From a virus (Duplodnaviria > Caudoviricetes): a stretch of 45,394 nucleotides of DNA. The stretch lies in the IMG/VR virus record IMGVR_UViG_3300044852_000057, positions 1-45,394 of that record; one strand, 5' to 3'. The first letter of the stretch is position 1. Every line of letters begins with the position of its first letter. Positions 3,461 through 40,878 of this stretch are shown here, in pieces. Both the position numbers and the translations under genes were made by a program. The notes below the pieces were generated by a model that worked only from the letters and a program-made list of their open reading frames with translations, had not been told where the DNA came from and ran no database searches.

Positions 3461-3738
3461 CCGCTCGAGCTCGCGTCGCTCCTCGAGCGACCGGCCTGGC
3501 GTCGGCTCGGGCCCGGCTCGCCGTGGCGCGCGCCTGGGCCCGACCGCGGCTCCGGTCCGGCGTGGGCATCCTGCCGAAGCTCGCGGTCCTGGCGATCGGC
3601 GCCGTCGCGCTCGCGCTCGTCGTGCTCGGCGTGTCGGATATCTATGCGCCGGCCGGCAAGATCGTGGCCGGCGCCGTCCTCATTGCCATCATCACGTTCG
3701 ATCCGACCCAAACGAGGAAGCTGATATGGCCGCGCTGA
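3457..3738 (+). CDS. small membrane protein preceding portal
   Basis: GTG start coupled to upstream stop; two C-terminal TM segments. Confidence 0.55.
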   Translation: MTARARVAPRATGLASARARLAVARAWARPRLRSGVGILPKLAVLAIGAVALALVVLGVSDIYAPAGKIVAGAVLIAIITFDPTQTRKLIWPR

Positions 3739-5381
3739 TCGAGACCATCGGGCCGCGCTCGAGGCGCGTCGCCGTCGGCGACATCAATTCGTTCGACGCC
3801 TGGGTCGGGCTCTGGGGCCTCGACGGGCTCGGCTCGATCCTTGAGACGACCGTCCCGCGGCAGCAGGAGATCATCGATCCGACGTTCGTCGGGCACGTCG
3901 TCGGCGCCTACCTCCGGAACGCCGTCGTGTTCGCGTGCCTGGCCGTCCGGGCTCGGCTCTTCAGCGAGGCGCGGTTCCAGTTCCAGCAGATGCGCGGCGG
4001 GCGGCCTGGCAACCTCTTCGGCACGCCGGCGCTGTCGGTCCTCGAGCGGCCGGAGCCCGGCAAGAGCACGCGCGACCTGCTCCAGGTGGCGATGCTCGAC
4101 GCCGATATCGGCGGCAACGGGTTCCTCCTCGGGCGCCAGGCCGCGATTCGCCGGCTCCGGCCGGACTGGATGACGATCGCCTACGGGTCGCGGGGCCGGG
4201 CGACCGAGCTCGGGTCGTGGGATCCCGACGCCGAGGTCATCGGCTACGGATACCACCCTGGCGGGTTCTCCTCGGGCGAGCAGGTGATCACGTTCGTGCC
4301 GGAGGAGATCGCGCATTTCGCGCCGACGAAGGACCCGCTGGCGCGCAACCGTGGCGTGTCGATCCTGACGGCCGGCGTCCGGGAGATCATGGCCGACAAC
4401 GGCGCGACGACGTCGAAGCTGTCGTTCTTCGAGAACGCGGCGACGCCGAATATCGCGCTGAAGTTCCCGGCGACGATGTCCAAGGACAAGGCGCTCGAGT
4501 GGATCGAAATCTTCGAGCAGGAGCACCGCGGCGCACGCAATGCGGCTCGGACGGTCTATCTCGGCGCCGGCGTCGAGCCGTTCCCGGTCGGGCTGAACTT
4601 CCAAGAGATGGATTTCGCCAAGGTCCAGGGCAAGGCCGAGACCCGGATCGCGGCGCTGACCGGCATGCATCCCGTCGTCGTCGCGCTGTCGGAGGGCCTC
4701 GCCGGCTCGTCGCTCAACTCCGGCAACTTCGGGTCGGCGGCTCGGCTCGTCGGCGACGCCACGCTCCGACCGCTGTGGGGCGACATCTCGAGCTCCCTCG
4801 AGTCGATCATCCCACCGCTACCTGGCACCCGGCTCTGGTTCGACGACCGCGACATCGCGTTCCTCCGCGAGGACGTCGGCGACCAGGCCGACATCATCCA
4901 GAAGCAGGGCGCGACGATCGGTCAGGCGATCCGCGACGGGTTCACGCCGGCGTCGGCGATCGACGCGGTTGTCTCGGGCGACATGACCCGGCTCGTGCAC
5001 ACCGGGCTCGTGAGCGTTCAGCTGCAGCAGCCGGGCGCGGCTCCGCCGGCGGCGTACCGCGCGAAGCGTGACTTCTGGTCCGTCGAGCCCGCGCTGGACG
5101 AGCTCGGGACGGTTCGCTCGGGCGAGGTCCTCACCGACGTCGCCGGCTCCGACGGGCGATGGGTTCACCATCCGCTCGTGTCGGCCTACCCTTCGCTCTT
5201 CGATGTCGCCGAGGTCTCGGTCCCGGAGACCTCGATCGTGTCGCGTGACGCAATCGTGCGGCGTCGGGCGGCGCTCCTCGGCGATGGCAAGCCGGCCGGC
5301 TACCTGTCGCTCGCGCGATCGCTCGGCGTGTCGGTCTCGACGGTTCGTCGCAGGCTGGCGGAACAGCCCACGACAGCGTGA
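3726..5381 (+). CDS. HK97-family portal protein with C-terminal extension ending in an HTH-like motif
   Basis: [39 protein letters not shown] motifs; position after TerL. Confidence 0.93.
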
Positions 5382-7495
5382 GCAATCCGCGGCTCGCTCG
5401 AGCGATCGGGCTGGGCGCGGTTCGCATCCGTCTGGCGTTCACGCCGGCCGAGGTCGCCGACCTGCAGGCGCGGCTCCTCGTGTCGGCGCACCGGTTCGAG
5501 CTCGCTCGGGATCCCTGGCAGCCGGCGCTCGTCGACCAGGCGGCGGCGGAGGTCACCGCGCTCGAGGCGGCGATCGCCTGGGCCAGCGCACGGCTGGTCT
5601 CCGATACCTACGGGCCGGGATGCTGCGAGCCGGGCCAGGTCTGGGCGCTCGAGGACGAGCTCGTGTTGGTGCGAGCCGTCGACGCCACGCACATCGGCAT
5701 CGAACGAGGGGCGCTCGGCAGCGACGCGGCGGGCCACGATGCCGGCACCGAGCTCGTGCAGGTGCGGCTCCTCGCAGCCGGCGAGCGCGGCGAGCAGGGC
5801 GCCGACGGGTCGGCTGGCGCGCCTGGCGCCGACGGGCACGCTGGTCCCACGGGTCCCGCTGGTGCGACGGGTCCCAAGGGCGATGCGGGCGATGCGGGCG
5901 GCGCGGTCGGTTCCACCGGCGCGACGGGTGCCACCGGGCCGGCTGGTCCCACGGGTGCCACGGCGGCTGTCGGTGCGACCGGACCGACCGGCGCCGACGG
6001 ATCCGCCGGCGCGACCGGCGCCACCGGAGCTCGAGGCGCGACTGGTCCGGCTGGCGCCGACGGTGCGAACGGCGCCACGGGTGCCACCGGACCGTCTGGG
6101 GCCACGGGTGGCACCGGGCCGGCTGGCGCCGACGGAGCCGATGGCGCGGACGGGTTCTCTGCCTATGATCTCGCCGTCATCGGCGGGTTTGTCGGCAACG
6201 AGGCAGCCTGGCGCGCGTCGCTCGTCGGGGCTACCGGGCCAACGGGCGCGAAGGGCGACCAAGGCGATCTCGGTGCGACCGGGCCGACGGGCGCGACCGG
6301 CACCGCCGGCGTGAAGGGCGACCAGGGCGATGTCGGTCCGACCGGTCCGACCGGCTCCGCGGGCTCCGCTGGTGCGCCCGGCAGCCAGGGGCCGGGCGGC
6401 GATCCGCTGTCCGTGGCGGCGGCCTGGCCGGTCGGGTCGCTCTTCCTGTCCGTCGACTCGACCAACCCAGGGACGTCGCTCGGGATCGGGACCTGGATCG
6501 CCTACGCGCAGGGCCAGATGCTCCTCGGGTTCACGCCGGGCGACACCGTCGGGGCGTCCGTCGGCTCGGCGACGCACGGTCATACGGTCACGCAGCCGTC
6601 CGCGCATGCCGCGCTGAGCCACGCCGGCGCGACGGTCGCCGACCACGCCTTCACTCAGCCGGGCGCTCACTCCGACCACGCGGCGCTGTCGCACTCCGCC
6701 CATGCCGGCGCCGCGGTCGGCGACCATGCCTTCACCCAGCCGTCGGCTCACTCGAATCACGTCGTGACCCAGCCGTCGAATCACGTCGTCACGCAGCCGT
6801 CCGGTCACTCGGCGCACGTCGTCACGCAGCCGAACGCGCACGCGTTCACCCAGCCGTCGGCTCACTCGAATCACGTCGTCACGCAGCCGTCCGGTCACTC
6901 GGCGCACGTCGTCACGCAGCCGAACGCGCACGCCGACGTCCTCAACCACGTCCACGGCGAGCAGGTCCAGGGCGGGACGTCTGGGACCACGACCGGGACG
7001 CACGTCATGGGCTCTGCGTCGACGGGCGGCTCGCTCCGGACCGCTGGTCAGTCGACGCTCAACCCGACGTCGGGCGGCGTCGCGAGCCAGGCGCACGCCG
7101 GCGCGGCCGTCGACGCGCACTCGGCGCATGCGGGCACCGCGGTCGACGCGCACTCAGGGCATGCTGGCGGCGCCGTCGACGCGCACGCCGGGACCGCGGT
7201 CGACGCTCACTCGGCGCACTCAGGCGCGGCCGTCGACGCTCACGCGGGCGCGGCCGTCGACGCGCACTCGGCGCACGCCGGCGGCGCCGTGAGCTCCCAC
7301 GTCGTCACGCAGGCGGCGGCGCACTCCGACCACGCGGCGCTGTCGCACTCGGCTCACTCGGGCGGCGCCGTCGACGCGCACGTCGTCGGCCAGGCGAGCC
7401 AGCACGGGAGCCAGGCGCACTCGGGCGCCGCGGTCGACGCCGTGTCCAATCTGCCACCGGCCGTGATCGTCTACATCTGGAAGCGCACGGCCTGA
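5378..7495 (+). CDS. collagen-like fibre with His-rich needle domain (candidate head fibre)
   Basis: G-x-y repeats, [19 protein letters not shown] motif, [11 protein letters not shown]...GTW and [12 protein letters not shown] collar motifs of T4 gp10/gp12-like fibre C-termini. Confidence 0.8.
6581..7441 (+). repeat. mirror-symmetric His-repeat arrays (HxxTQP and HxGxAVDA units)
   Basis: two 116-aa arms (6581-6928, 7094-7441) flanking a 55-aa tip; near-identical tandem DNA units. Confidence 0.9.
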
Positions 7496-7587: not shown

Positions 7588-8952
7588 ATGCCAGCGAATC
7601 CGACGCACCACACCGACGTCGTCGACGAACCGTGCCAGGCATACATGCCGTTGCCCCGGACCTTGGTGACCGGGCTCGCGAGCGCGGCCTCCTCGGCCGG
7701 ACCGTCCCACGACGCTGCCGGCAATGACCCTGATGGCGACGGCTACCCTGACGCCAAGGCCGATTCGAAGTTCCCGCACCACGAGGTCGATGAGACCTCC
7801 GGCGAGCCTGGCGACGCGAACATGGCCGGCTGCCAGGCGGCGATGGGCCGGATCGACCAGGCCAACATTCCGGCCGGCGACGACGTCGCGGTCCGCGCGC
7901 ATCTCCAGGCGCACATGGACGACATGGCGACCATGCCGGGCGAGCCCGACGCGCCTGGCGCCACGCTTGTCGCGCCGCGGTCCTACGCGCACGTGACCAA
8001 GGCGCTCACCGAGCGGGCGTGGGCCGTCCAGCCGCAGGTCCTGTCCTACATGGTCGAGCTCGTGCGGTTCCGGTCCGACGGCGGGCTGCTGTCGGCCGAC
8101 GAGATCGAGCAGCGCCTGGCGGCCGCCAAGGCACAGAACGGCGAACGCATCGGCGGCGCGCAGGCCGGGTCGGTCGCGGTCATCCCGATGTACGGCCTCA
8201 TCACGCAGCGGGCGACGATGATGTCCGACTTCTCGGGCGGAACGTCCATCGACGAGCTCCGCTCCCTGCTCCGGACCGCGCTCGCGGATCCCACCGTGAC
8301 GGCCGTCGTGTTCGACGTCGACTCGCCGGGCGGGTCCGTCGACGGCGTTCCGGAGTTCGCGGCCGAGCTCCGCTCCGCGCGGGCCGGCTCCAAGCCGGTC
8401 ATCGCGCAGGTCAACACCCTGGCGGCGTCCGCGGCGTATTGGCTCGCGAGCTCGTGCTCCGAGATCGTCTGCACGCCGTCCGGCGAGGTCGGTTCGATCG
8501 GCGTGTTCGCCGCGCACGAGGACCTGTCCAAGGCCGCCGAGATGGAGGGCGTCAAGACGACGCTCGTGTCGGCGGGCCCGTACAAGACCGAGGGCAACCC
8601 GTTCGAGCCGCTCACCGATGAGGCTCGCGCCGCGATCCAGGACCAGGTCGACGCGTTCTACGGCATGTTCGTGGGCGACGTCGCGCGAGGTCGTGGCGTC
8701 GGCGCGGACGTGGTCACCTCGAGCTACGGCCAGGGGCGCACGCTCCTGGCGTCCAAGGCGCGATCGGCCGGCATGGTCGACCGCATCGATACCCTGGAGG
8801 CGACCATTCGTCGGCTCCAGCCACCGAAGGCGGCTCGGCCTGGCGCCGCGTCGCTCCAGATCGCGGCGTCTGCCGCTCGTGCGGCGACTGCCGCGTCCGT
8901 TGGCCGAGCCGATGCGGCTTGGAATCGTCGAATGAGAGGGAAGCGCAAGTGA
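7588..8952 (+). CDS. S49 (SppA/ClpP-like) prohead maturation protease with N-terminal accessory domain
   Basis: DVDSPGGSV, AASAAYWLAS, GSIGV, AGPYKTEGNP motifs; directly upstream of capsid. Confidence 0.93.
   Translation: MPANPTHHTDVVDEPCQAYMPLPRTLVTGLASAASSAGPSHDAAGNDPDGDGYPDAKADSKFPHHEVDETSGEPGDANMAGCQAAMGRIDQANIPAGDDVAVRAHLQAHMDDMATMPGEPDAPGATLVAPRSYAHVTKALTERAWAVQPQVLSYMVELVRFRSDGGLLSADEIEQRLAAAKAQNGERIGGAQAGSVAVIPMYGLITQRATMMSDFSGGTSIDELRSLLRTALADPTVTAVVFDVDSPGGSVDGVPEFAAELRSARAGSKPVIAQVNTLAASAAYWLASSCSEIVCTPSGEVGSIGVFAAHEDLSKAAEMEGVKTTLVSAGPYKTEGNPFEPLTDEARAAIQDQVDAFYGMFVGDVARGRGVGADVVTSSYGQGRTLLASKARSAGMVDRIDTLEATIRRLQPPKAARPGAASLQIAASAARAATAASVGRADAAWNRRMRGKRK
7635..7707. other. in-frame 73-bp micro-inversion within protease gene
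   Basis: flanked by CGTG/CACG; reverse complement restores WDGPAEEAAL...MYAWHD in frame with typical codon usage. Confidence 0.75.
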
Positions 8953-10523
8953 AGGAGCTCCTCCGCTACCAGGGCGCGACGCCGGTCGCCGCGGCCGTCT
9001 ACCGTCCAGCCGGCGTCGGCCTGGCCGGGATGACGCTCCCGGACCTGGGCATCAACACGTACCTCGTCGACCTCGAGTCGCTTCGGGGTCTCGAGGCGCA
9101 CAAGCAGGCGGCCGTGTCGCTGGCCGCTCGACTGACGGAGCTCGACGCCGAGGCCGCCGGTCGCTCGTTCACCGACGAGCAGCGGCAGGAGTTCGAGGAA
9201 ATCTCGGCTCCCGAGACGGGTCTCCTCGCGCGCGTCCAGGCGGCCGTCGACGAGCTCGAGATCCGTGAGCAGACCATCGCCGGCATCGTCGGCGCGGGCG
9301 GCCGCGGCGTCGAGTCGACGACGTTCTCTGCTCCCAATATCCGACGCGTGCCGGACGACCCGTTCGATCTCGTCGCATATCGGCAGCGGGTCCGGTCGAT
9401 CGACGATCTGCCGCAGGCCTACCGCGACGGCGCCATGCGCGTCCTCGAGGGCGCCGTGTTCCCGACCGCGCTGGCGGCCGGCTCGGATCCCGAGAAGCAG
9501 CGCGCTCGTGTCGCGCAGCTGATCGAGCGCCACGCCAAGGAGCGGAACGGCTGGATCTCCGCGCACGTCATCGGGACGAGCTCGCCGGCCTACGTCGAGG
9601 CCTACGCGCAGGCGATGTCCGGGCAGCCGGTCTCGCCGCGGATGATGGCCGTCCTCCAGACCTACGTCGACGCCGACGGTGGCTTCGCCATCCCGACGAT
9701 CATCGACCCGACGTTCATCAACACGTCCGACGGCTCCGTCAACCCGATCCGGCGCATCAGCCGCATCGAGACGACGGTCGGCAAGGACTGGCGCGCGATC
9801 ACGACGGCTGGCGTCGTGGCGGCCTACGTCGGCGAGCGCACCACCACGGGCGCCGCTGATGGCGCACCGACCGACGTCGACGATCCCACCGTCACGCCGG
9901 TCCGGGCCGACGTGTCCGTCGACGCGTCGCTCGAGTACCTCCAGGATTACGGCTCGACCGCACTCCTGGCCGAGCTCGGCACCCTCATCCAGGTGGCGAA
10001 GGACGACCTCGAGGCCGTCAAGTTCTTCCTGGGCGACGGCACCGGCGAGCCCGAGGGCATCGTGTTCGCGATCGACGCGGACGCCGGCTCCCTCGTCGCG
10101 ACCATCACCGACGACGTCTACGCGCTCGAGGACATCGACAAGCTGATCGGCCAGCTGGGCGCGCGGTTCCGCTCGCGGGCCGAGTTCGTGGCCAACCTGG
10201 CCATCCTCCAGCTGTCGCGTGACTTCGGCACGGCCGGCCAGACGGCCGGGACGATCTACGACCCGATCTCCAAGACGCTTCGCGGCTACGCTGCGAGCGA
10301 GGCCAGCGCGATGGACGACGTCGCGACCAACGCCAAGGAGATCCTGCTCTTCGGCGATTTCAGCAAGTTCGTCGTCGTCGACAAGCTCGGGCTCTACTCG
10401 AAGGTCCTCGACTCGAGGGACACCAACGGGCGGCCGACCGGCAATTCGACGATCTACGCGGCCTGGCGGAACAGCACCAAGGTGCTGGTCCTCAACGCGT
10501 TCCGGCTCCTCAAGGTCCAGTAG
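8949..10523 (+). CDS. major capsid protein, HK97 fold, with N-terminal delta/scaffold domain
   Basis: GTG start overlaps protease stop; GGFAIP, NPIRRIS, FFLGDGTGEPEGI, LFGDFSKF motifs. Confidence 0.95.
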   Translation: MKELLRYQGATPVAAAVYRPAGVGLAGMTLPDLGINTYLVDLESLRGLEAHKQAAVSLAARLTELDAEAAGRSFTDEQRQEFEEISAPETGLLARVQAAVDELEIREQTIAGIVGAGGRGVESTTFSAPNIRRVPDDPFDLVAYRQRVRSIDDLPQAYRDGAMRVLEGAVFPTALAAGSDPEKQRARVAQLIERHAKERNGWISAHVIGTSSPAYVEAYAQAMSGQPVSPRMMAVLQTYVDADGGFAIPTIIDPTFINTSDGSVNPIRRISRIETTVGKDWRAITTAGVVAAYVGERTTTGAADGAPTDVDDPTVTPVRADVSVDASLEYLQDYGSTALLAELGTLIQVAKDDLEAVKFFLGDGTGEPEGIVFAIDADAGSLVATITDDVYALEDIDKLIGQLGARFRSRAEFVANLAILQLSRDFGTAGQTAGTIYDPISKTLRGYAASEASAMDDVATNAKEILLFGDFSKFVVVDKLGLYSKVLDSRDTNGRPTGNSTIYAAWRNSTKVLVLNAFRLLKVQ

Positions 10524-12150: not shown

Positions 12151-12734
12151 TGGCGATCGAGGATCGCTATCGGCACACGGTCACCATCGTCCGGATGCTC
12201 CCGACGCGCGGCGGCGCGGCCGAGACCGGCGGCGGTCTCGATACGACGCTGACGGCTGACTCCGCGGTCGGCGCGCTCGAGCTCGAGCTCGTCGACGTCG
12301 GGGCGCTGGCGCCGGGCGACTTCCTCCGGATCGGCGACGCCGGCGAGGCCGAGGTCCGCGAGGTCGCCGGCGTCGCGCTCCTCGTCGTGACGCTGGCGGC
12401 GCCGCTCCAGGCGAGCCACGACGCGGGCGACCAGGCGCGCCAGGTCGACGATGCCGGCTCCGTGTCGGTCGATGAGTACGGGCAGCCGGTGGTAGGCGAG
12501 ACGACCGTGGCGACCATCCGCGGACTGATCCAGCCGCGCTCGGCCAAGGAGGTCCAGTTCTCGACGGGCGCCGGTCCGGTCATCGGCAACCACGTTCTCT
12601 ACTGCGGGCTCGTCGCCGGTCTCACGACCGACTGCTGGATCGACTTCGGGACGCGCAAGTTCGAGGTCCTTTCGATCGCCGACGCGGCCGGGCTCGGGCA
12701 CCACCTCGAAGTGGCGCTTCAGGAGATCAAATAG
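12150..12734 (+). CDS. head closure (stopper) protein with inserted repeat module
   Basis: TGATG coupling; RHTVTIVR...DEYGQP...FEVLSI...HHLEVALQE stopper pattern split by ~80-aa insert. Confidence 0.75.
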   Translation: MAIEDRYRHTVTIVRMLPTRGGAAETGGGLDTTLTADSAVGALELELVDVGALAPGDFLRIGDAGEAEVREVAGVALLVVTLAAPLQASHDAGDQARQVDDAGSVSVDEYGQPVVGETTVATIRGLIQPRSAKEVQFSTGAGPVIGNHVLYCGLVAGLTTDCWIDFGTRKFEVLSIADAAGLGHHLEVALQEIK

Positions 12735-13686: not shown

Positions 13687-14697
13687 ATGACCACGACGAT
13701 TACGCCGGAGGAGCTCTACTTCGGGGCGCCGGCATCGATCACCTACGGCGGCGTCGAGTGCGGCGCGACCATCGATCCTCCCAAGATCGCGTTCGCCGTC
13801 ACGACCTACACGCCGAAGTTCCAAAACGCCAAGGGCCCGGTCAAGGGCACCTCGATCACGACCGAGGTCATCCCGTCGGCCGAGTTCACGGTCAACCAGA
13901 TCACCGCGCAGAAGCTCGCCTGGGCGCTGCCGGGTTCGTCCTCCTCGAGCTCGCCGTCCCTCGGCCAGGTTCGGGCCGGGCTCGTGACCACGCTCGGCGC
14001 GGATCCCGCGCTCGGCGCCACGCTGATCCGGCTGGCGTCCGTCACGACCGTCGCCGATGGCGACTTCATCCAGATCGGGCCGGCCACGACCGAGGCCGAC
14101 ACCGAGGTCGTGCGCGTCGTCGTCGCCGGGACCGCCGGCGCGACCGACACCCAGGTTGAGAACAGCGCCGGCGGCGGGCTGCTCATCGACCACGGCAACG
14201 GCGAGGCCGTCAAGACCGTCACCGGGACGCTCCTCGCGGCTCCGGTCGCGGCCGGCGGGACGACCGTCAAGCTCGACGACATGACCGGCCTGGCGCCGGG
14301 CGATTTCGTCCGGTTCGGCTACGTCGGGCACTACGAGACGCGCGAGCTCGTGACCGTCGGCACCGCCGGCGCTGGCGGCACCGGCGTCACGTTCGCGATC
14401 CCGCTGACCCGCGACCACGCGATGGGCGAGTGGGCGATCGAGGTCACGTCGCTCGGCGCGACGACGATCACCTGGACGGCCGGGCGGATCCCGTCCGACC
14501 AGTACCAGGACCTCGTCCTCGTCGGGCTCGGGCTCGACGGGCGGCAGCTGACCGTGTCGATCTTCGACGCGATGTCGGCCGAGAGCCAGGAGCTCGAGTT
14601 CAGCGACCAGACGGTCTCCGGCCTGAAGGTCAAGTTCGCCGGCAATTACGACCCGGCGACGCCGACGGTGGTGCCGTTCAGCATCGTCCTCGAGTAA
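13687..14697 (+). CDS. major tail (tube) protein with two inserted repeat modules
   Basis: AGGAG RBS; synteny; N- and C-terminal tube-like segments flank two similar ~75-aa inserts. Confidence 0.8.
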   Translation: MTTTITPEELYFGAPASITYGGVECGATIDPPKIAFAVTTYTPKFQNAKGPVKGTSITTEVIPSAEFTVNQITAQKLAWALPGSSSSSSPSLGQVRAGLVTTLGADPALGATLIRLASVTTVADGDFIQIGPATTEADTEVVRVVVAGTAGATDTQVENSAGGGLLIDHGNGEAVKTVTGTLLAAPVAAGGTTVKLDDMTGLAPGDFVRFGYVGHYETRELVTVGTAGAGGTGVTFAIPLTRDHAMGEWAIEVTSLGATTITWTAGRIPSDQYQDLVLVGLGLDGRQLTVSIFDAMSAESQELEFSDQTVSGLKVKFAGNYDPATPTVVPFSIVLE

Positions 14698-17896: not shown

Positions 17897-18528
17897 CGGC
17901 CGGGTTCATCTCGCTCGGGATCCCTGGCACGGGCGCCGAGACCGGCGGCGGGGCCAACACGACGCTGTCGGCCGACGTCGCGGCTCGGGCGAGCTCGATC
18001 CACGTCGCGTCGGCGACCGGGATCGCGGCGGGCGACTTCCTCCGGATCGGCGACGTCGGCGAGACCGAGATTCGCCAGGTCGACGCGAGCTACGTGGCCG
18101 GGACGACGATCCCGCTGGCGACGCTCCTCGGGCGGGCGCATGACTCGGGCGACCAGGTGCGCGAGGTCGACGACGCCGGCGCGTTCGTCGGCGCCGAGGA
18201 CGTCTGGGACGCCGAGTGGTCCGGGTTCGCCTATGTCAACCACAAGCAGGTGACCGCGCTCCTCGGGACCGGGCTGACGGCGACCGCGAACGCCACGCTC
18301 CAGGAGGGCGCCAAGGGCTATCGCGAGGCGACGCTCGTGTTCACGGCTCCCGACTCGGCGACCAAGGACGCGGTACGCGCGTTCGATGAGTCGAGCGAGG
18401 CGATCGAGTTCACCGACTACGACGCGACGATCCGGAGCGTGCGGGTGCTCACCTTCGAGGCGTCGCTGACGGTGTCCGATCTCTGGCGGGTGTCGGTCCG
18501 GCTCCAAGAGCTCACGGAGCCGGTCTAG
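17893..18528 (+). CDS. distal tail protein-like, with inserted repeat module
   Basis: directly after TMP; insert homologous to the one in the stopper gene. Confidence 0.6.
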   Translation: MTAGFISLGIPGTGAETGGGANTTLSADVAARASSIHVASATGIAAGDFLRIGDVGETEIRQVDASYVAGTTIPLATLLGRAHDSGDQVREVDDAGAFVGAEDVWDAEWSGFAYVNHKQVTALLGTGLTATANATLQEGAKGYREATLVFTAPDSATKDAVRAFDESSEAIEFTDYDATIRSVRVLTFEASLTVSDLWRVSVRLQELTEPV

Positions 18529-21416: not shown

Positions 21417-22523
21417 ATGGCGAGCGGCGGCTGGATCGCGCTCCCGGCGAAGGCCGAGGCGGACATCGACACGGCGGACGCCGGCTACGTCAACGTGTTC
21501 TCGGACGCCGACGACAGCGCCAAGCCGGCCTACAAGGACGAGCTCGGCGCTGTTACGTCCCTCCGCGGCTCTACCGGAGGCACCGGTCCGACGGGCGCTA
21601 CCGGTCCGACGGGCGCTACCGGTCCGACGGGCTCGACGGGTGGCACCGGGCCGACCGGGCCGGCGTTCGATGACGTCCAAGCGCACGGCAACGCGGGAGC
21701 CGCGGAAACCTTCGACGTCTCGCTCGCTAACTTCCACACCGCGACGCTCGACGTGAATTGCACGGCAACCTTCGCCGGCGCCGTCAACGGGATCCTCTCC
21801 GTCATGGGGCTGCGCCTCAAGCAGCCGGCCGCCGGCGGACCGACGACGATGACCTGGCCGGGTTCGGTCGTCTGGCCGGATGGCGTCGCGCCGACGCTCC
21901 AGACCGGCGCGAACCTGGTCGATGAGCTCAGCTTCGACACGACCGACGGAGGGACAATCTGGTACGGCCACTATGACCGGCCCGGCCCGACTGGCGCGAC
22001 GGGGCCTACCGGTGTAGCGGGCCCGACCGGACCGACCGGACCGTCCGGCGCCGCGAGCGCCACGGGTTCCACCGGGCCGACCGGTCCGACCGGCCCGACC
22101 GGGCCGACGGGCTCCGGCGCCACCGGGCCGACGGGCCCGACGGGGCCGACGAGCCTCACGACGGCGGACGCCGGCCTCGGCGCCAACGTGGCCGTCGGCG
22201 GCTCTGCCTACACGGACATCATCAGCCTCGCGCTCGGGGCTGGGACGTGGGACGTCTGGGCCTACGCTGACATGGCCGGAGGCGGGACCGGCGGGCAGTA
22301 CTACATCGCGATCACGACCAACGGGAACGCGCAACTCGCACAGTCGTCGGCGAGCTTCGTCGCGAGTCAGGATCAAACGGTCCCGATCTTCGCGCCCGGC
22401 GTGGCGGGCTCTCAGACGATCAAGCTCCGCGTGTTCTCCACGCAAAACGCCAACGCGCAGGGCACCACAGCTATCGGCTCGCCCGGCGGCGGCTCGAAGA
22501 TCCACGCGCTGCGGATCGCCTGA
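21417..22523 (+). CDS. collagen-like tail fibre protein
   Basis: two GPT/GAT repeat tracts flanking a TWP..V.WP.G.AP beta domain. Confidence 0.8.
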
Positions 22524-22586: not shown

Positions 22587-23486
22587 ATGGGCACCTACAA
22601 CGCGATCATCGCCGCGAGCGACACGGCCGCCGCGCTCAAGCTCACGGCTACCGCGATCTGCGACGGGACGGCCGACGAGGTCGAGATCAACGCGGCGATC
22701 GCGGCCGGCGTCGGCGTCCCGTACTCGATCCTCCTCCTCCCTGGGACCTATAACATCGCGGCGGCCGTTGACTTTACGGCGCTGACCGCGGCCGGCGGCG
22801 TCTGGATGACCTTCGAAGCGTCCGGATCGGTCATCAAGGCAGCCGCCAACATGGCGACGATGATCAAGCTCGATCCTGGCGCGGGCGGCCAGATCGTGAC
22901 GTGCGCGGATATCCGGCTCGGCAAGCTCGACGGCAACGCGAGCGGCGGCAAGGCCGTCACGCAGGTCGTCAACATGGCCCGCTTCAACGACAACGTCCTC
23001 CGGATCGTCGACATCTTCGACGGCTCCGGGGACGCCTTCCGGGTCAACATGACCGGCGTCGCCGACTTCCCCAACGGCAATAACCTCATCACGATCGGGA
23101 TCATCCACAACTTCGGCGGCACCGGCTTCTACGTGACGGGCGCGTCCGGGACGTACAACTTCCAGGGCAATACCGTCACCGTCGGAGAGGTGATCGCCTG
23201 CAATAACGGGTTCGTAATCGGCGGCGCTGCGAACGACGGGGCGAACTACAACCGCTTCAACCTCGGCGTCGTCGAGCACAACACCCACGCTGGCGTCTAC
23301 GACTATTGCGGCGGGAATATTTGGCTGATCGGCAACACGAACAGCAACGGCGACGAGGGCCTCGGCGCTCCGGCTGGCGTCACGCTCCGGTCGACGATCA
23401 TCACGAACACGACGGACACGATCGTCGCTGCCGTAACCGGGCAGTATTACGTGCTCAACAACGGGCATGTCGTGGGCCAGACGTGA
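22587..23486 (+). CDS. beta-helix (pectin lyase-like) tailspike / depolymerase candidate
   Basis: AGGAG RBS, ATG 22587; CDGTADEVEINAAI, LLPGTYNI, LDGN motifs; Asn/Gly-rich. Confidence 0.7.
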   Translation: MGTYNAIIAASDTAAALKLTATAICDGTADEVEINAAIAAGVGVPYSILLLPGTYNIAAAVDFTALTAAGGVWMTFEASGSVIKAAANMATMIKLDPGAGGQIVTCADIRLGKLDGNASGGKAVTQVVNMARFNDNVLRIVDIFDGSGDAFRVNMTGVADFPNGNNLITIGIIHNFGGTGFYVTGASGTYNFQGNTVTVGEVIACNNGFVIGGAANDGANYNRFNLGVVEHNTHAGVYDYCGGNIWLIGNTNSNGDEGLGAPAGVTLRSTIITNTTDTIVAAVTGQYYVLNNGHVVGQT

Positions 23487-24532
23487 CCTACGGGCTGGTC
23501 GCGATCGTCAAGGACGAGGCCGAGCGGATCGACCGTTTCGTGGAGTCGGTCCGCCCGCTGATCTCGGCGTGGACGATCGTCGACACGGGATCGACCGACG
23601 GGAGCCCGGAGCTCATCCGCAACGGCCTCGCCGGGATCCAGGGTCGGCTCCTCGAGGCGCCGTTCGTCGACTTCGGGACGACTCGCTCGATCGCGTTCGC
23701 CGCGGCGCGCGGGACGGCCGACTGGCTGCTCGCGCTGGACGCCGACATGACGGTCGAGATCGACGCCGAGTTCGAGCCGGATCCCGACGTCGCGGCCTAC
23801 CTCATCCGAATGGGCGACGAGGCGTTCGAGTACCGATTGCCGCTGGTCCTCCGGGGCGATCTCCCCTGGATCAGCCGCGGCGCCGTCCACGAGTACACGT
23901 GCCTCGAGGACGGGTCGCTCGGCCGGCGCGAGCCGACGGACGCCATCCGGATCCGCAACAGCGGCGCGGACCGCTCGAGCCCGGCCAAGACGCGCTGGCA
24001 GGCCGAGCTCCTCGAGGCCGAGCTCGTGCGGGAGCCGGACAATCCTCGGACTACGTTCTACGTGGCACAGACGCTCCGCGAGATCGGCGATGCGCGATCC
24101 CTCGAGCGGGCGGCGGTGCTCTATCGGCGCCGGGCCGAGATGGGCGGTTGGATCGAGGAGTCCTGGTATGCGCGGTTCCGCGCGGCGCTCCTCGAGGTCG
24201 ACTGGCCGGCGCGCCTAGCGGCGCTCCTCGCGGCCTGGGACGCGCGACCGGCGCGGCTCGAGCCGCTCTACCACGTCCTCCGCGAGCTCAACGCTCGGGA
24301 CCAGCACGCCACGGCCTACGCACTCGCGCGGTCGGTCGACCCGTCGTCGCGGCCGGCCGACATTCTGTTCGTCGAGCCGTGGATCTGGACCTACGGCATC
24401 GCGTTCGAGCGGAGCGTCGCGGCCTGGTGGCTCGGCCGGCGCGACGAGTTCGCGCGACTGACGGCCGAGCTCCTCGAGCTCCCGCTGACGCCGGCGATCC
24501 GGGCGGCCGTGGAAGCGAACGCGGCGGCGTGA
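23483..24532 (+). CDS. family 2 glycosyltransferase with TPR-like C-terminus
   Basis: IVKDEAE.I, IVDTGSTDGS, LALDAD (DxD), GAVHE, PDNPRTTFYVAQT motifs. Confidence 0.9.
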   Translation: MTYGLVAIVKDEAERIDRFVESVRPLISAWTIVDTGSTDGSPELIRNGLAGIQGRLLEAPFVDFGTTRSIAFAAARGTADWLLALDADMTVEIDAEFEPDPDVAAYLIRMGDEAFEYRLPLVLRGDLPWISRGAVHEYTCLEDGSLGRREPTDAIRIRNSGADRSSPAKTRWQAELLEAELVREPDNPRTTFYVAQTLREIGDARSLERAAVLYRRRAEMGGWIEESWYARFRAALLEVDWPARLAALLAAWDARPARLEPLYHVLRELNARDQHATAYALARSVDPSSRPADILFVEPWIWTYGIAFERSVAAWWLGRRDEFARLTAELLELPLTPAIRAAVEANAAA

Positions 24533-29680: not shown

Positions 29681-29982
29681 TGCCGGTCCTGCTCATGACC
29701 ATCCGCGTGGCCGACGGCTCCGAGGTGCCGTCGGCCGAGGTCCTCACCGATGATCTCGGCGCGCTGGTGCACACGGCCGGCGCCGAGCACTACGGCCGGT
29801 CCTCGGGCTGCCACCTCCGCGTGTTTCACCGCGACGGATCCGCGGAGCACGACCGCGCGGCGTTCCGGCGGTCGCTCCAGGAGCTCGGCGCCGACGAGGA
29901 GACGCAGGCGCTCCACCTGTCCGAGTGGGACCAGTACCTCCGGCCGGTCGCCGTCATGCATTGGTGGGAGGCCGTGAACTAG
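29680..29982 (+). CDS. hypothetical protein
   Basis: TGATG coupling. Confidence 0.5.
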   Translation: MPVLLMTIRVADGSEVPSAEVLTDDLGALVHTAGAEHYGRSSGCHLRVFHRDGSAEHDRAAFRRSLQELGADEETQALHLSEWDQYLRPVAVMHWWEAVN

Positions 29983-29984
29983 CC

Positions 29985-31031
29985 ATGCCGATCCGCGACC
30001 TACAGCGCCGGCTCCGAGAGATCGGGCGGATTCGGGCGGGCTCGTCGACGACGAAGGGCGGCCGGAAGGTTCCGTCCAAGCTCGAGACCTGGCGGCTCAC
30101 GAGCCCGACGCGCGAGCTCATCGAGGCCGCGGCCGAGCTCTACGGCGGCCACGTCGTTCCCTGGGAGCGTGAGTTCGAGGTGATCACCGAGGTCGCCGTC
30201 CTCGACATCGTGATCCCTCCCGGCCAGAGCTTCACCCAATGGAACGAGCTCTGGGCGGGGGGTGGGTGCGTTCGCCGGTGCGACGGCCAGGTCAACGTCC
30301 TCACCATGACCGAGTGCGCGTGTCCGGCGGATCCGCTGGCGCGGGCCGAGCTCGCCAAGCGCGGCGAGGCGTGCAAGCCCACGAGCCGGCTGTCCGTCAT
30401 GCTCCCGGCGCTCCCGGACCTCGGCGTCTGGCGCCTGGAGAGCCACGGGTTCTACGCGGCCGTCGAGCTCGCCGGCGCGGCCGACGTCCTGGCGATGGCG
30501 ACCTCGGCCGGCCGGCTCATCCCGGCGCGGCTCCGCCTCGAGCAGCGCGAGAAGAAGGTCCCTGGCAGGCCGACCAACCGCTACGCCGTCCCGGTCATCG
30601 AGTTCGTCCAGACGCGCATGGCCGACCTCGAGCTCGACCTGTCGGGCGCCGTCGCTGCTCCGCGACTCGGGGCGGGCAGCGGCGGCCGCCCGCCCGCGCT
30701 CATGGCGCCACGAGCCGACCTCCCGGAGTCGAGCGACTTCAGGGCACCGGTGCCGACCGGCCCGCTCCCGCTGGCCGAGCGGCTCCGGGCCGACGTCGTG
30801 CGATGGGCCGGGCTCGCCGGTCCTCCGACCGACGACCAGCGGACGACCCTGGGCGCGCTCTTCGCCGGCGTGGCCATGCCGGCCGTCGTCGCCGGGATCC
30901 GGATCGCGTTCGAGCATCCGACGCTCGAGTCCGGCGCCGAGGCCGAGTCGATCGTGTCGGTCGCCGCGGCCACCGGGCCCGCGTTCCTGGACGAGTGGGC
31001 GGCGATGGTCGCCGAGGGCGAGCAGGCATGA
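29985..31031 (+). CDS. Gp3-like (recombination directionality factor-like) recombination protein
   Basis: LQRRLREIGRIR.G, RRCDG, CKPTSRLSVML, GVWRLESHGFYAAVEL motifs. Confidence 0.75.
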   Translation: MPIRDLQRRLREIGRIRAGSSTTKGGRKVPSKLETWRLTSPTRELIEAAAELYGGHVVPWEREFEVITEVAVLDIVIPPGQSFTQWNELWAGGGCVRRCDGQVNVLTMTECACPADPLARAELAKRGEACKPTSRLSVMLPALPDLGVWRLESHGFYAAVELAGAADVLAMATSAGRLIPARLRLEQREKKVPGRPTNRYAVPVIEFVQTRMADLELDLSGAVAAPRLGAGSGGRPPALMAPRADLPESSDFRAPVPTGPLPLAERLRADVVRWAGLAGPPTDDQRTTLGALFAGVAMPAVVAGIRIAFEHPTLESGAEAESIVSVAAATGPAFLDEWAAMVAEGEQA

Positions 31032-32491: not shown

Positions 32492-32781
32492 GCCGGGTGC
32501 CACCGATCTGCGGGCTCTGCGGCTACGAGTCGGACCAGGAGGTCCGGATGGGGTTCGTCCGATGGACCGAGCCTGGCGATCCGCCGAGGCCGTTCGGGGC
32601 GATGCCGCGGTGCACCGATCGAGCGGCGTGCCGGGCCCGCGTCGAGCGCGCCGGCGAAGCCTGGGAGGTCGCCGACACGGCGGCTGACGTGAAGAAGGCG
32701 CCGGCGGGCACCTCCGTCGTCGTTGTCGCTCAGACCGATCAGCCAGCGCCGGCGCAGGCCGAGGATACACGGCCGTGGTGA
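32488..32781 (+). CDS. small Cys-containing hypothetical protein
   Basis: CGLC and C.DR.AC motifs; GTGA coupling. Confidence 0.5.
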   Translation: MSRVPPICGLCGYESDQEVRMGFVRWTEPGDPPRPFGAMPRCTDRAACRARVERAGEAWEVADTAADVKKAPAGTSVVVVAQTDQPAPAQAEDTRPW

Positions 32782-34457
32782 CGCTCTTCCACCGCGACGC
32801 CTGGCTCGAGCAATATCTCGGCGATGCCGAGGCGGTCCTGGCGTCGCTCCCGGCCGAGAGCGTGCATTGTGTCGTGACGTCACCGCCGTACTGGAATCTC
32901 CGCGACTACGGCGTCGCCGGCCAGCTGGGCCTCGAGCTGACGCCGGAGCTCTACGTCGACCGGCTCGTCGCGATCTTCCGGGAGGTGCGGCGCGTCCTCC
33001 GGTCCGACGGGACCGTATGGCTCAACCTCGGCGACACGTACTCGGCCGGCGGCCGCTCGAGCTACGACCAGGCAACGCCGAATCGCGGCAACCGGGCGTC
33101 GGCTCGCGCGCCGCGGCACTCCGCCGGGCTGAAGCCCAAGGACCTCGTCGGCATTCCCTGGATGGTCGCGTTCGCGCTCCGGGCTGACGGCTGGTATCTC
33201 CGGCGCGACGTCATCTGGTCGAAGCCCAATCCGATGCCGGAGTCGGCCGAGGACCGGCCGTCGACGAGCCACGAATACCTCTTCCTGCTCACGCGCTCCG
33301 AGCGGTACTTCTATGACGCCGAGGCCATTCGGGAGGCCGCGACGTCCGGGCCATCCGACCTTCGCAAGATGGCCGAGGCGCTGCCACGGATCGGCGGGCT
33401 GGTCCTCGAGCAGGACGATCGGCACCTGAAGGCGTCGGCGCGCACGAACGTCGGCCGGAAGCGGTCCGTCGGCGGCGCGCCGCTCCGGATCCCGACGGGC
33501 TGGAATGCTGGCGCGACCGAGGCCGATCGGGATGGCCGATTCGCCGGCGGCGTCGCCGCGGTCGACGCTCGGCCTGGGCGATCGAAGCGGTCCGTCTGGA
33601 CGATCGCGACCGAGCCGTTCCCAGGCGCGCATTTCGCGACCTTCCCGACCAAGCTCGTCGAGCCGTGCATCCTGGCCGGCACCAGCGCGCGCGGCGTCTG
33701 TCCGGCCTGCGGCGCGCCGTGGATCCGCGAGCTCGCCACCGAGTACTCGGCGATCACCGACAACAGCGACGTCGAGGGCGAGGCGCTCGCCGTCGGGCGC
33801 CAGTTCCGGGAGCGGGCGGTTCGCTCGAGCTCAACCACCGGCTGGCGGCCGTCGTGCTCGCACTCGGCCGGGCTCGAGCCCGACGACCTCGACGTGATCG
33901 TGAGTCCGCTCGTGACCGTCCGGGAGGGCGCCGAGGCCGACCCGGTCGACGGCCGGGCCTCCGGGACGCGCCGGCGCGGTCTCGATCGGACCCGGATGGC
34001 CGACGAGGGCCAGCGGCCGATGGCGCGGTTCGAGCAGCGCGCCTATGCGCGCCAGCTGCGGGCGCTGCTCCGGCCGGACCTCGAGGCGCTGGCCGCCGAG
34101 GCCGGGCCGGCGTTCGCGCACTACCTCCGGACCGACCGGGCCGGCGCGCGACCGATCCCCGGCTCCCTCCTCGAGGCCTGGATCGCGCGCGGCGTCCTCG
34201 AGCCCGTGTCGCTCCCGGAGCTCGTCGCCGAGCAGCCCGTGCCGGCGACGGTCCTCGACCCGTTCGGCGGCTCTGGGACGACGGCGCTCGTCGCCGAGCG
34301 CCTGGGCCGGCGGGCGATCCTCATTGATGTCTCGGCCGACTACGCGGCGATGGCGCTCGAGCGCGTCGCGGTCGGCCGGCGTGATGGCTCGGGCGCGGCG
34401 ATCGACATGCCGCTCCCGGCTCCCGACGATTCGCTCTGGGCGGAGGTGGTCTCATGA
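32775..34457 (+). CDS. N4-C/N6-A DNA methyltransferase (beta class) with insertions
   Basis: VTSPPYW catalytic motif, IWSKPNPMPES, HFATFP, LDPFGGSGTT SAM motif. Confidence 0.93.
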   Translation: MVTLFHRDAWLEQYLGDAEAVLASLPAESVHCVVTSPPYWNLRDYGVAGQLGLELTPELYVDRLVAIFREVRRVLRSDGTVWLNLGDTYSAGGRSSYDQATPNRGNRASARAPRHSAGLKPKDLVGIPWMVAFALRADGWYLRRDVIWSKPNPMPESAEDRPSTSHEYLFLLTRSERYFYDAEAIREAATSGPSDLRKMAEALPRIGGLVLEQDDRHLKASARTNVGRKRSVGGAPLRIPTGWNAGATEADRDGRFAGGVAAVDARPGRSKRSVWTIATEPFPGAHFATFPTKLVEPCILAGTSARGVCPACGAPWIRELATEYSAITDNSDVEGEALAVGRQFRERAVRSSSTTGWRPSCSHSAGLEPDDLDVIVSPLVTVREGAEADPVDGRASGTRRRGLDRTRMADEGQRPMARFEQRAYARQLRALLRPDLEALAAEAGPAFAHYLRTDRAGARPIPGSLLEAWIARGVLEPVSLPELVAEQPVPATVLDPFGGSGTTALVAERLGRRAILIDVSADYAAMALERVAVGRRDGSGAAIDMPLPAPDDSLWAEVVS

Positions 34458-39275: not shown

Positions 39276-39515
39276 CTAGGAGCGGTTGCCCCAGCGGGCG
39301 AGCGCGGCCTTGCGAGCGCTATCGGCCCGTTCCTCGGGCGTCATGTTCGCGGCGCGCACCTTTCCCCCAACCATGCCACCCTTACGGCCCAACTCGACAG
39401 CAGCCGGGTCCTTGACTCGGGCAGGCGGATCAGGCTCGCGCTGGCCCGTGGCGAAATCGACCACGGCCTTAGCGAGCTGGTTGGGGTCGCGCGGCATTCG
39501 GGAGCGCTTAGGCAT
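39276..39515 (-). CDS. small basic protein upstream of transposase
   Basis: PRDPNQLAK...KDPAAVELGRKGG...ARKAALARW, typical companion of this transposase group. Confidence 0.75.
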   Translation of the reverse strand: MPKRSRMPRDPNQLAKAVVDFATGQREPDPPARVKDPAAVELGRKGGMVGGKVRAANMTPEERADSARKAALARWGNRS

Positions 39516-39618
39516 GCCGGAATCATGGGGCATGCCTCAGGGATCGGTCAAGCGACGGGCGGCTCAAATTGAGCCACTACCGGCATTTCCATGTCAGCGG
39601 GCATCGGGTGCTCTGGCC

Positions 39619-40878
39619 GTGAGCGCGCGGAAGGCGGGCCCGGCCTGGCGATCGCGGATCACAGGCTCGGGCGAGGTCGCTCCAGGCGAGCTCCACGCGA
39701 ATCCTGGCAATTGGAGGACCCATCCAGCCGGCCAGCGCGGCGCGCTCCGCGGCGCGCTCACCGAGGTCGGTTGGGTGCAGCAGATCCTCGTCAACCAGCG
39801 GACCGGCAACGTCGTCGACGGCCATGCGCGGCTCGAGGAGGCGCTCGCGCGCTCCGAGCCGTCCGTGCCGGTGCTCTACGTCGACCTGTCCGAGGCGGAG
39901 GAGGCGCTGGTCCTGGCGACGCTCGATCCCATCGGCGCGATGGCCGAGTCCGACACGGCGGCGCTCGGCGCGCTCCTCGAGCGGGTGAAGGTCGACGACG
40001 CTGATCTCGGCGCGCTGCTAGCGAATCTCGGCGGCGTCGAATCGCGCCGGCCTGGGCTCGTCGATCCCGACGAGCTCCCGGTGCCGCGGGATCCCGACGT
40101 GCAGCCTGGCGAGCTCTGGTCGCTCGGCGAGCATCGGCTCCTCGTCGGCGACGCGACGTCGGCGGGCGACGTGGAGCGGCTGCTTGACGGCTCAGGCATC
40201 GATTGCGTCTGGACGGATCCGCCATATGGCGTCGCCGTCGTCGGCGGGACCGAGGAGAAGCTCACGATCCGGAACGACGACCTGACCGCGGCCGCGACGC
40301 GCGAGCTCATCGCCGGCGCGCTCCGGCTGGCGCCGCTCCGGCCGGGCGGCGTGTTCTACGTCGCCGCTCCCGGCGGGCCGACGCTGCTGGCGTTCCTGCC
40401 GGCACTCGAGGACGCGGCCTGGCGGCTCCGCCAGACGATCGTCTGGGCCAAGGACCGGTTCGTCCTCGGGCACTCCGACTTCCATTACCGGCACGAGAAC
40501 GTCCTCGTCGGCGACGTCGGCGGCCGTGACCAGGAGACGTTCGCGTACGGATGGGCGGCCGGCGCCGCGCACCGGTTCACCGGCGGGCGTCGGCTCGACA
40601 CGCTCTGGGAGATCCCGCGGCCGTCGGCGAGCCGCGACCACCCGACCATGAAGCCGGTCGAGATCGTGGCGCGCTCGCTCGAGTATTCGACCGTCGCCGG
40701 CGAGCTCGTCTACGACCCGTTCGCGGGCTCCGGGACCACGGTCATCGCGGCCGAGCAGCTGGGCCGGCGCGCGCGCGTCCTCGAGATCGACCCGCGGTAC
40801 GCGCAGGTGATCCTCGACCGCTGGCAGGCGTTCACCGGGCTCGTGCCGGAGCTCCTCGAGGGTCCTCCGCCGGCCTGA
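39619..40878 (+). CDS. ParB-like N-terminal domain fused to N6-adenine DNA methyltransferase
   Basis: NWRTHP, VDGHAR ParB-like motifs; TDPPY, HPTMKP, DPFAGSGTT. Confidence 0.92.
   Translation: MSARKAGPAWRSRITGSGEVAPGELHANPGNWRTHPAGQRGALRGALTEVGWVQQILVNQRTGNVVDGHARLEEALARSEPSVPVLYVDLSEAEEALVLATLDPIGAMAESDTAALGALLERVKVDDADLGALLANLGGVESRRPGLVDPDELPVPRDPDVQPGELWSLGEHRLLVGDATSAGDVERLLDGSGIDCVWTDPPYGVAVVGGTEEKLTIRNDDLTAAATRELIAGALRLAPLRPGGVFYVAAPGGPTLLAFLPALEDAAWRLRQTIVWAKDRFVLGHSDFHYRHENVLVGDVGGRDQETFAYGWAAGAAHRFTGGRRLDTLWEIPRPSASRDHPTMKPVEIVARSLEYSTVAGELVYDPFAGSGTTVIAAEQLGRRARVLEIDPRYAQVILDRWQAFTGLVPELLEGPPPA

Follow-up and report, generated by a model that had tools for sequence, protein, structure and literature searches.

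Introduction

In the known collar-needle tips of phage fibres, a six-stranded barrel is formed by chains that double back, and histidines arranged as HxH doublets bind metals (PMC12609058, PMC6957217, PMC11705849, PMC6116203, PMC3004832). The needle of T4 gp37 is an insertion in a collar of the gp10/gp12 type, with two stem arms of 50 residues and seven irons, and in it an essential glycine, Gly921, packs against Phe970 in another subunit (PMC6957217). The buried iron held by six histidines (His6) has been proposed as a reference point for folding (PMC6116203).

The protein described here, probably a virion fibre of an uncultured phage, joins a collagen stalk to a collar of the gp10 type, into which two long arms of tandem repeats and a small tip are inserted. 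The arms very probably pair antiparallel and in register, a view that rests on the covariation of sequences across two sets of relatives. The histidines that punctuate the arms are single and not paired as doublets.

The fibre gene and its domains

The window, by which the whole virus record of 45,394 bases is meant, is arranged like an HK97-type siphophage, with genes for terminase, portal, S49 protease, major capsid protein and a tape-measure-type protein in this order. The fibre gene stands between the portal and protease genes, with the following features.

3726..5381, + strand: portal gene, upstream neighbour (PF04860, E 1e-29)
5378..7495, + strand: fibre gene, 705 aa, with a GTG start overlapping the portal stop
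5378..5773 (residues ~1-132), + strand: small N-terminal domain with a helical-looking insert (HMM match, phrog_1101)
5780..6406 (residues 135-343), + strand: collagen G-X-Y stalk (PF01391, E 7e-20, 71 bits against a cut-off of 27.2)
6419..6574 (residues 348-399), + strand: collar N-half of the T4 gp10 C-terminal type (PF21939 Gp10_C, E 9e-13)
6575..6583, + strand: classic HxH, H400/H402, at the needle base (from the sequence)
6581..6928, + strand: outgoing arm, 116 aa, 19 His-started units, A5BA353BA3AA3AA3A3A (from the sequence)
6776..6933, + strand: two exact 68-nt copies (6776-6843 and 6866-6933), in the outgoing arm only (from the sequence)
6929..7093, + strand: tip, 55 aa (H518-A572), with HxH H524/H526 (from the sequence)
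7094..7441, + strand: return arm, 116 aa (H573-A688), B3B3BB3BB3BA353BA5B (from the sequence)
7442..7492 (residues 689-705), + strand: collar C-terminal strand (alignment to T4 gp10, pLDDT 86-92)
7588..8952, + strand: S49 prohead protease gene, downstream neighbour (PF01343, E 5e-36)

The collar N-half scored 49.8 bits against PF21939, passing the curated cut-off of 27, and was also matched by profile to PDB 2fkk (E 1e-5). The C-terminal strand, which alone lies below significance, was aligned to the C-terminus of T4 gp10 in the same structure (2fkk). The 61 collagen triplets of the stalk form four runs, of 14, 6, 21 and 20. The N-terminal domain, presumed to be a virion-attachment domain, matched phrog_1101 at E 0.0015, and an HMM built from 29 of 204 homologues matched at 5558-5767 (E 6e-12); residues 1-133 gave zero matches in Pfam, and an Atlas search pointed to PF11133 (head fibre) with a feature score of 0.89, taken as a lead only. 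No sigma-70 promoter or terminator consensus was found around the fibre gene. The major capsid gene follows the protease gene and ends at 10523 (PF05065, E 6e-21), and a separate collagen fibre gene lies in the tail module (21417-22523).

Several neighbouring features were noted in passing. The protease ORF begins with about 130 additional residues rich in His and Asp (7588-7975), missing from a 61%-identical prophage protease (L034); this extension was possibly inserted along with the fibre gene. Small domains resembling the fibre N-terminal domain are, by eye, seemingly inserted elsewhere, at ~12230-12500, 13987-14319 and 17959-18072, their hosts being a head-completion protein, a tail tube protein (twice) and the gene 3' of the tape measure; profile matches were weak (E 0.036-1.4), with none for the head-completion copy (~12230-12500). 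Four further genes lie at 23306-24532, 29925-31031, 32775-34457 and 39286-40878: one resembling glycosyltransferase family 2, which follows the tail genes, one for a Gp3-like recombination directionality factor, and two for N6/N4 DNA methylases. Glycosyltransferase genes likewise adjoin the needle gene in two related loci (L012, L022).

A complementary mirror in the two arms

Counted from H402 (6581), the His-started intervals of the outgoing arm are 8,5,8,8,3,5,3,8,8,3,8,8,3,8,8,3,8,3,8, which sum to 116 aa, and those of the return arm are their exact reverse. The 8-residue units are of two types, A and B, and the return string of tokens is the outgoing string reversed with A and B swapped. 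Only 1 in 116,396,280 orderings of the return tokens gives this mirror; for the lengths alone the figure is 1 in 2,116,296. The original prediction had described histidine spacing mirrored over 19 units, in arms of 116 aa around a 55-aa tip, with every A opposite a B and every B opposite an A, and recomputation returned exactly this. The arms had also been called unusually long, and indeed, of 182 scored proteins, only P0003 equals their 116 aa and none exceeds it.

The 19 His pairs share a single register with a position sum of 1091, and the second-best register still holds 14 pairs because the units are repetitive. The last return unit has no closing His, and H402, itself part of the HxH H400/H402, stands opposite V689. 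Both A units of the return arm lack the Pro. An inverted repeat in the DNA was rejected as the source of the mirror, since none of 20 nt or more was found, as the original prediction had maintained.

The pairing rule across the family

Homologue searches yielded 71 proteins and 22 viral loci. The first set had 94 entries including the window, from which eight were dropped (five open or truncated, three with multiple needles), leaving 86 proteins of 54 architectures. A first, loose tokeniser took tip residues for B units and found 20 of 58 exact mirrors; its rule was tightened once and then frozen before a held-out set was scored. This second set consisted of 133 new proteins from a profile search, of which 37 were dropped (24 without an 8-residue unit, nine without the collar N-half, three with fewer than two units and one without the C-half), so that 96 proteins of 59 architectures could be scored.

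Exact complement mirrors were found in 34 of the 54 architectures of set one (45 of 86 proteins), and 41 of 54 lay within one edit; these counts take in related sequences and are not independent events, which the use of distinct architectures and the cross-protein control mostly offset. When the outgoing arm of one protein was set against the return arm of another, 5 of 2,862 combinations matched, and the maximum reached in 100,000 permutations was 6. Mirrors of the same type (A opposite A, B opposite B) occurred in none of the 54 architectures. Facing 8-residue units were A:B in 175 cases, B:B in one and A:A in none, and arm lengths ranged from 8 to 116 aa, with outgoing and return lengths correlated at r 0.95. 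Under the frozen rule, 28 of the 59 held-out architectures (64 of 96 proteins) were exact and 43 of 59 within one edit, against 42 of 3,422 cross-protein pairs and a permutation maximum of 8; the arm-length r was 0.92. The arms thus co-vary in length and in A/B order across homologues, as expected of the out-and-back arms paired in register that had been proposed, and do not vary independently.

By the automatic rule, 20 of 54 architectures in set one and 31 of 59 in the held-out set were not exact, some of them through tokeniser misses at the ends. True exceptions are L003, L007 and P0018/L005, which have an additional 3+A block beside the tip, and P0053, with eight B units against six A. Units of unequal length also stand opposite each other, as 10:12 (P0021, in three of three cases) and 7:6 (four proteins), and the matched quantity is therefore the His-to-His segment and not the residue count. 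Such 10:12 and 7:6 pairs, and HxH modules nested in ladders, were seen in P0021, P0024, P0076, P0081, P0105 and P0133.

In set one, 83% of A units contain Pro and 93% of B units contain Gly. The switch from B to A was direct in 64 cases, and that from A to B passed through a 5-residue unit in 70 and was direct in one. Switches were looser in the held-out set: B to A direct in 57 and through a 3-residue unit in 8, A to B through a 5-residue unit in 46 and direct in 7. In some proteins, two or three collar-plus-ladder modules follow one another, and each seems to be self-mirrored (P0067, L022:4615-7320, P0058). Others have inverted polarity, with B going out and A returning (P0031, P0050, P0053, P0066, P0071, P0128); the first five of these end without the usual collar strand, and the ladder may thus function without a collar.

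Covariation of facing residues

Coupling was scored in 162 facing pairs, drawn from the 34 exact architectures, and was strongest between position 3 of A and position 4 of B. In 57 of 59 cases, a Phe at A3 had a Gly opposite it at B4, and in 57 of 61 a Gly had a Phe; the maximum in within-protein shuffles was 42. In the window, Gly stands opposite each of the three Phe units and opposite none of the other eight. The held-out set gave 21/25 and 21/22 for the same two counts, and Phe/Gly tables at two fixed homologous positions read 17/1/0/5 and 19/1/0/26. This exchange of a large residue with a small one fits direct packing and points to a real contact. The original prediction of arms paired in register thus gains from the facing residues as well as from the family-wide mirror.

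Single histidines and the proposed metal sites

The needle encoded in the window has 38 single histidines, in register, and only two HxH doublets (H400/H402 and H524/H526). In the family, 4 HxH occur among 891 arm histidines, and 51 of 54 tips retain an HxH. In T4 gp37, used as a control, 14 of 14 needle histidines belong to HxH doublets, and none lies opposite a His when the register is taken from the stem boundaries. The original prediction had invoked metal sites of the gp37/gp12 style, which does not carry over: those sites are HxH doublets on one strand, the ladder histidines are single, and any metal site here must therefore be built in another way.

Collagen and collar together make a trimer likely. 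Putative metal sites would draw one outgoing and one returning His from each chain of the trimer, giving about 19 cross-strand sites in addition to the two classic HxH sites. Sites of this kind are predicted with reasonable probability. If each takes one His from each of six strands, it would follow that the spacing of the histidines and not the sequence is mirrored; the spacing mirror fixes the register only to a constant offset, and we infer from it that His faces His. Sites three residues apart would place metals about 1 nm from each other, nearer than in gp37.

The same in-register hairpin could also hold histidines that hydrogen-bond or stack, perhaps as a pH-sensitive zipper, that form smaller metal sites, for instance of three histidines all from one type of arm, or that chelate along one strand as His-x-x-His. 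The spacing of three residues is tighter than any in gp37, and with Pro in A units and Gly in B units the strands would not be regular beta strands, both of which suit this explanation. It appears unlikely, however, given that His stays the first residue even between facing units of different length, that classic HxH modules occur nested within these needles and delimit the ladder, and that the buried histidines of related fibres bind Fe or Zn.

Tips, genomic placement and host

The 179 tips compared form 39 clusters, and the tip family of the window has 35 members, carried on arms of 8 to 116 aa, which fits a variable spacer with an exchangeable binding tip. This bears on whether the ladder serves for metal display or scavenging, either as Trojan-horse iron or by concentrating metal in sediment, its length being selected for metal load. 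Up to 21 sites per trimer are predicted, against 7 in gp37, the Trojan-horse idea has been published for HxH fibres (PMC11705849), and the only public run listed with the gene is a sediment metagenome, possibly the source sample (RNA runs listed: none). We nevertheless hold the metal-load explanation to be quite improbable: six-His axial sites would be buried, a poor fit with the display suggested in the original prediction, and one tip family on arms of such different lengths, together with at least 39 tip clusters, speaks for the spacer with an exchangeable tip.

In 19 of the 22 viral loci, neighbouring genes were scanned. The gene abuts the portal gene in seven, lies about 0.5 kb or one gene past it in three and elsewhere in the head module in three, for 13 of 19 in the head module in all; three are in the tail module and three unplaced. 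Portal, protease and capsid proteins that share 60, 61 and 51% identity with those of the window occur in a related prophage, whose genome belongs to the same class as a Limnocylindrales record; this prophage has no gene between portal and protease, which probably makes the fibre an accessory. From gene order and a weak Atlas lead, there is about an even chance that the fibre is attached at the head or neck. A needle reaching through a thick envelope, the other function first proposed, is a poor match for a gene that lies in the head module.

The host likely belongs to the Chloroflexota. The four genome matches are three Chloroflexota records, of a tail-fused type, and one Calditrichaeota record; the ladder occurs in 3 of the 401 genomes of the class of G001, the inspected ones being of the tail-fused type. 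A conserved subfamily in Chloroflexota genomes, with the ladder fused behind a PF14594 tail protein, comprises L014, L024-L026 and about 20 proteins of ~645 aa.

Structure prediction and searches

AlphaFold2 monomer models of window residues 345-705 (alignment of 44 rows) and of the shorter L010 needle (27 rows) both gave a confident collar and a low-confidence ladder. For the window the pLDDT was 76-92 over residues 345-384 and 86-92 for the C-terminal strand; mean ladder values were 53.6 and 59.0 in the two models, with almost no strand structure. A prediction of the trimer with zinc (score 0.10, mark 0.42) is evidence neither way. Foldseek searches with these low-confidence models reached E<=0.001 neither in the PDB, where T4 gp10 came nearest (E 0.29), nor among viral models, and VIA-align gave Z 2.3-2.4 over 36-37 collar residues only; the ladder models carry no information on the novelty of the fold.

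By sequence, the ladder has no solved relative, and a search of 50,697 cultured-phage records found no match to it. Taken alone (6560-7492), it matched 0 PHROG families, and the only clusters from the ESM Atlas were of the Gp10_C and collar kinds. In the literature covered, mostly open papers, no account of a ladder of single histidines across strands was found.

The A3/B4 couple sits three residues off the direct antiparallel partner, and a contact between chains, or a staggered one, is needed. Pairing of A and B arms in trans, with other chains or neighbouring fibres in domain-swapped or lattice assemblies, would accommodate this offset, and covariation is blind to whether a contact lies within or between chains. 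The collar halves flank the ladder and must meet, though, and length matching within one gene is most simply explained by a fold-back, which leaves assembly in trans very improbable.

How the arms change length

The original prediction located a tandem duplication in the outgoing arm at about 6730-6930, which was pinned to 6776-6843 and 6866-6933, identical over 68 nt at a spacing of 90. The outgoing duplicate is identical at 66 of 66 nt and 22 of 22 codons, whereas the return segments opposite agree at 52 of 66 nt and show six synonymous and four non-synonymous differences; the two arms were therefore not copied together, and single-event co-duplication is ruled out. Of the earlier proposal that the arms expand in register, the covariation of lengths across relatives stands and a single joint event does not. 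In a public sediment run, possibly the source sample, the duplication contig had a depth of 30.9 against 13.7-16.4 in its neighbours, and a junction contig was present. Both argue against an assembly artefact as the source of the duplication, and the two copies look real.

The exact outgoing copies represent a recent duplication or conversion. The likely route to matched arms is separate slippage or recombination, or later conversion of one arm, filtered by selection for register, and the exceptions with one additional block may be tolerated bulges or intermediates. That DNA repeats, chance or mis-assembly produced the mirror, as low-complexity tandem repeats in both arms and the 14 pairs of the second-best register might suggest, is a negligible prospect and refuted by the mirrors of set one, the Phe/Gly covariation and the held-out set: there is no inverted repeat, facing copies diverged differently, the cross-protein and permutation controls were far exceeded in two sets, and the duplication is at two-copy depth.

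A proposed mechanism

The predicted best explanation overall, and a fairly likely one, is a trimeric collar-needle fibre with in-register fold-back arms and six-His metal sites. Each chain would leave the gp10-type collar, run 116 residues to a swappable tip and return antiparallel in register, and facing outgoing and return histidines of the three chains would form six-His metal sites along a stiff stalk. A and B would be two differently shaped strands of one rung, with the Phe of A packing at the Gly of B. A strand would pass from the A role to the B role mainly through the 5-residue unit, in the self-complementary context A-3-5-3-B; the reverse switch, from B to A, would be direct. The metals would stiffen the needle and give its folding reference points, and would not be displayed cargo.

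Arm length would shift by slippage or recombination in one arm and be kept only if the other arm matches; an unmatched change would be lost because an unpaired His leaves a site incomplete. Scaled from the gp37 needle (about 150 A), the ladder would be roughly 29-35 nm long. The collagen stalk would add about 50 nm, from its rise per residue. A needle of some 30 nm on this stalk would most likely stand on the head or neck and hold the tip clear of the particle, and the tip probably binds a receptor or surface.

The chances seem balanced for a more detailed version, a natural counterpart of base pairing in protein, in which an alphabet of A:B, 3:3, 5:5, 10:12 and 7:6 pairs (with F:G and V:A/T sub-types) would zip the arms into a trimeric wire of about 20 metals that changes length unit by unit, in a plug-in fibre of the head or neck with some hosts in the Chloroflexota.

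If the proposed sites are real, they are a second metal-site design in phage fibres, and surveys of virion iron that count HxH miss it (2 sites by HxH against about 21). The ladder also offers a repeat-protein family with a pairing rule that is readable from sequence and testable. It makes testable both buried metals as folding reference points and length change in coupled repeats, and is a candidate scaffold for stiff nanorods or for metal arrays whose length can be programmed.

Comparison with known fibres

The C-terminal domain of T4 gp10 (PF21939) has both collar halves, and relatives of the fibre also have a PF07484 collar; the difference is the insertion of about 290 residues of ladder and tip. 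With the collagen-stalked phage fibres (phrog_6320, phrog_5073) the fibre shares a G-X-Y stalk followed by a terminal domain, although matches of this type rest mainly on collagen. The fibres of T4 gp12 and R-pyocin are trimers that bury an octahedral metal site of the His6 kind (PMC3004832, PMC6116203); they have one HxH site without a repeat ladder, and gp12 is described as a knitted trimer and not a needle.

The closest likeness is to the tip of T4 gp37 (collar D10 and needle D11, PDB 2XGF), where the needle is likewise inserted between collar halves of the gp10/gp12 type. As in the gp37 and Bas63 tips, a chain that very probably doubles back has equal stem arms and a small distal tip (PMC6957217, PMC12609058). 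A probable Gly-Phe contact across the arms and HxH at base and tip recall the published gp37 details as well. Matched antiparallel arms of the gp37 type are indicated by the covariation of sequences, and HxH doublets do not run along the needle as they do in gp37. Judged by its sequence, the fibre is one that works like the gp37 collar-needle but fails the HxH pattern. It differs further in its arms, which are 116 rather than 50 aa long and made of complementary tandem repeats, in its collagen stalk and in the place of its gene in the head module.
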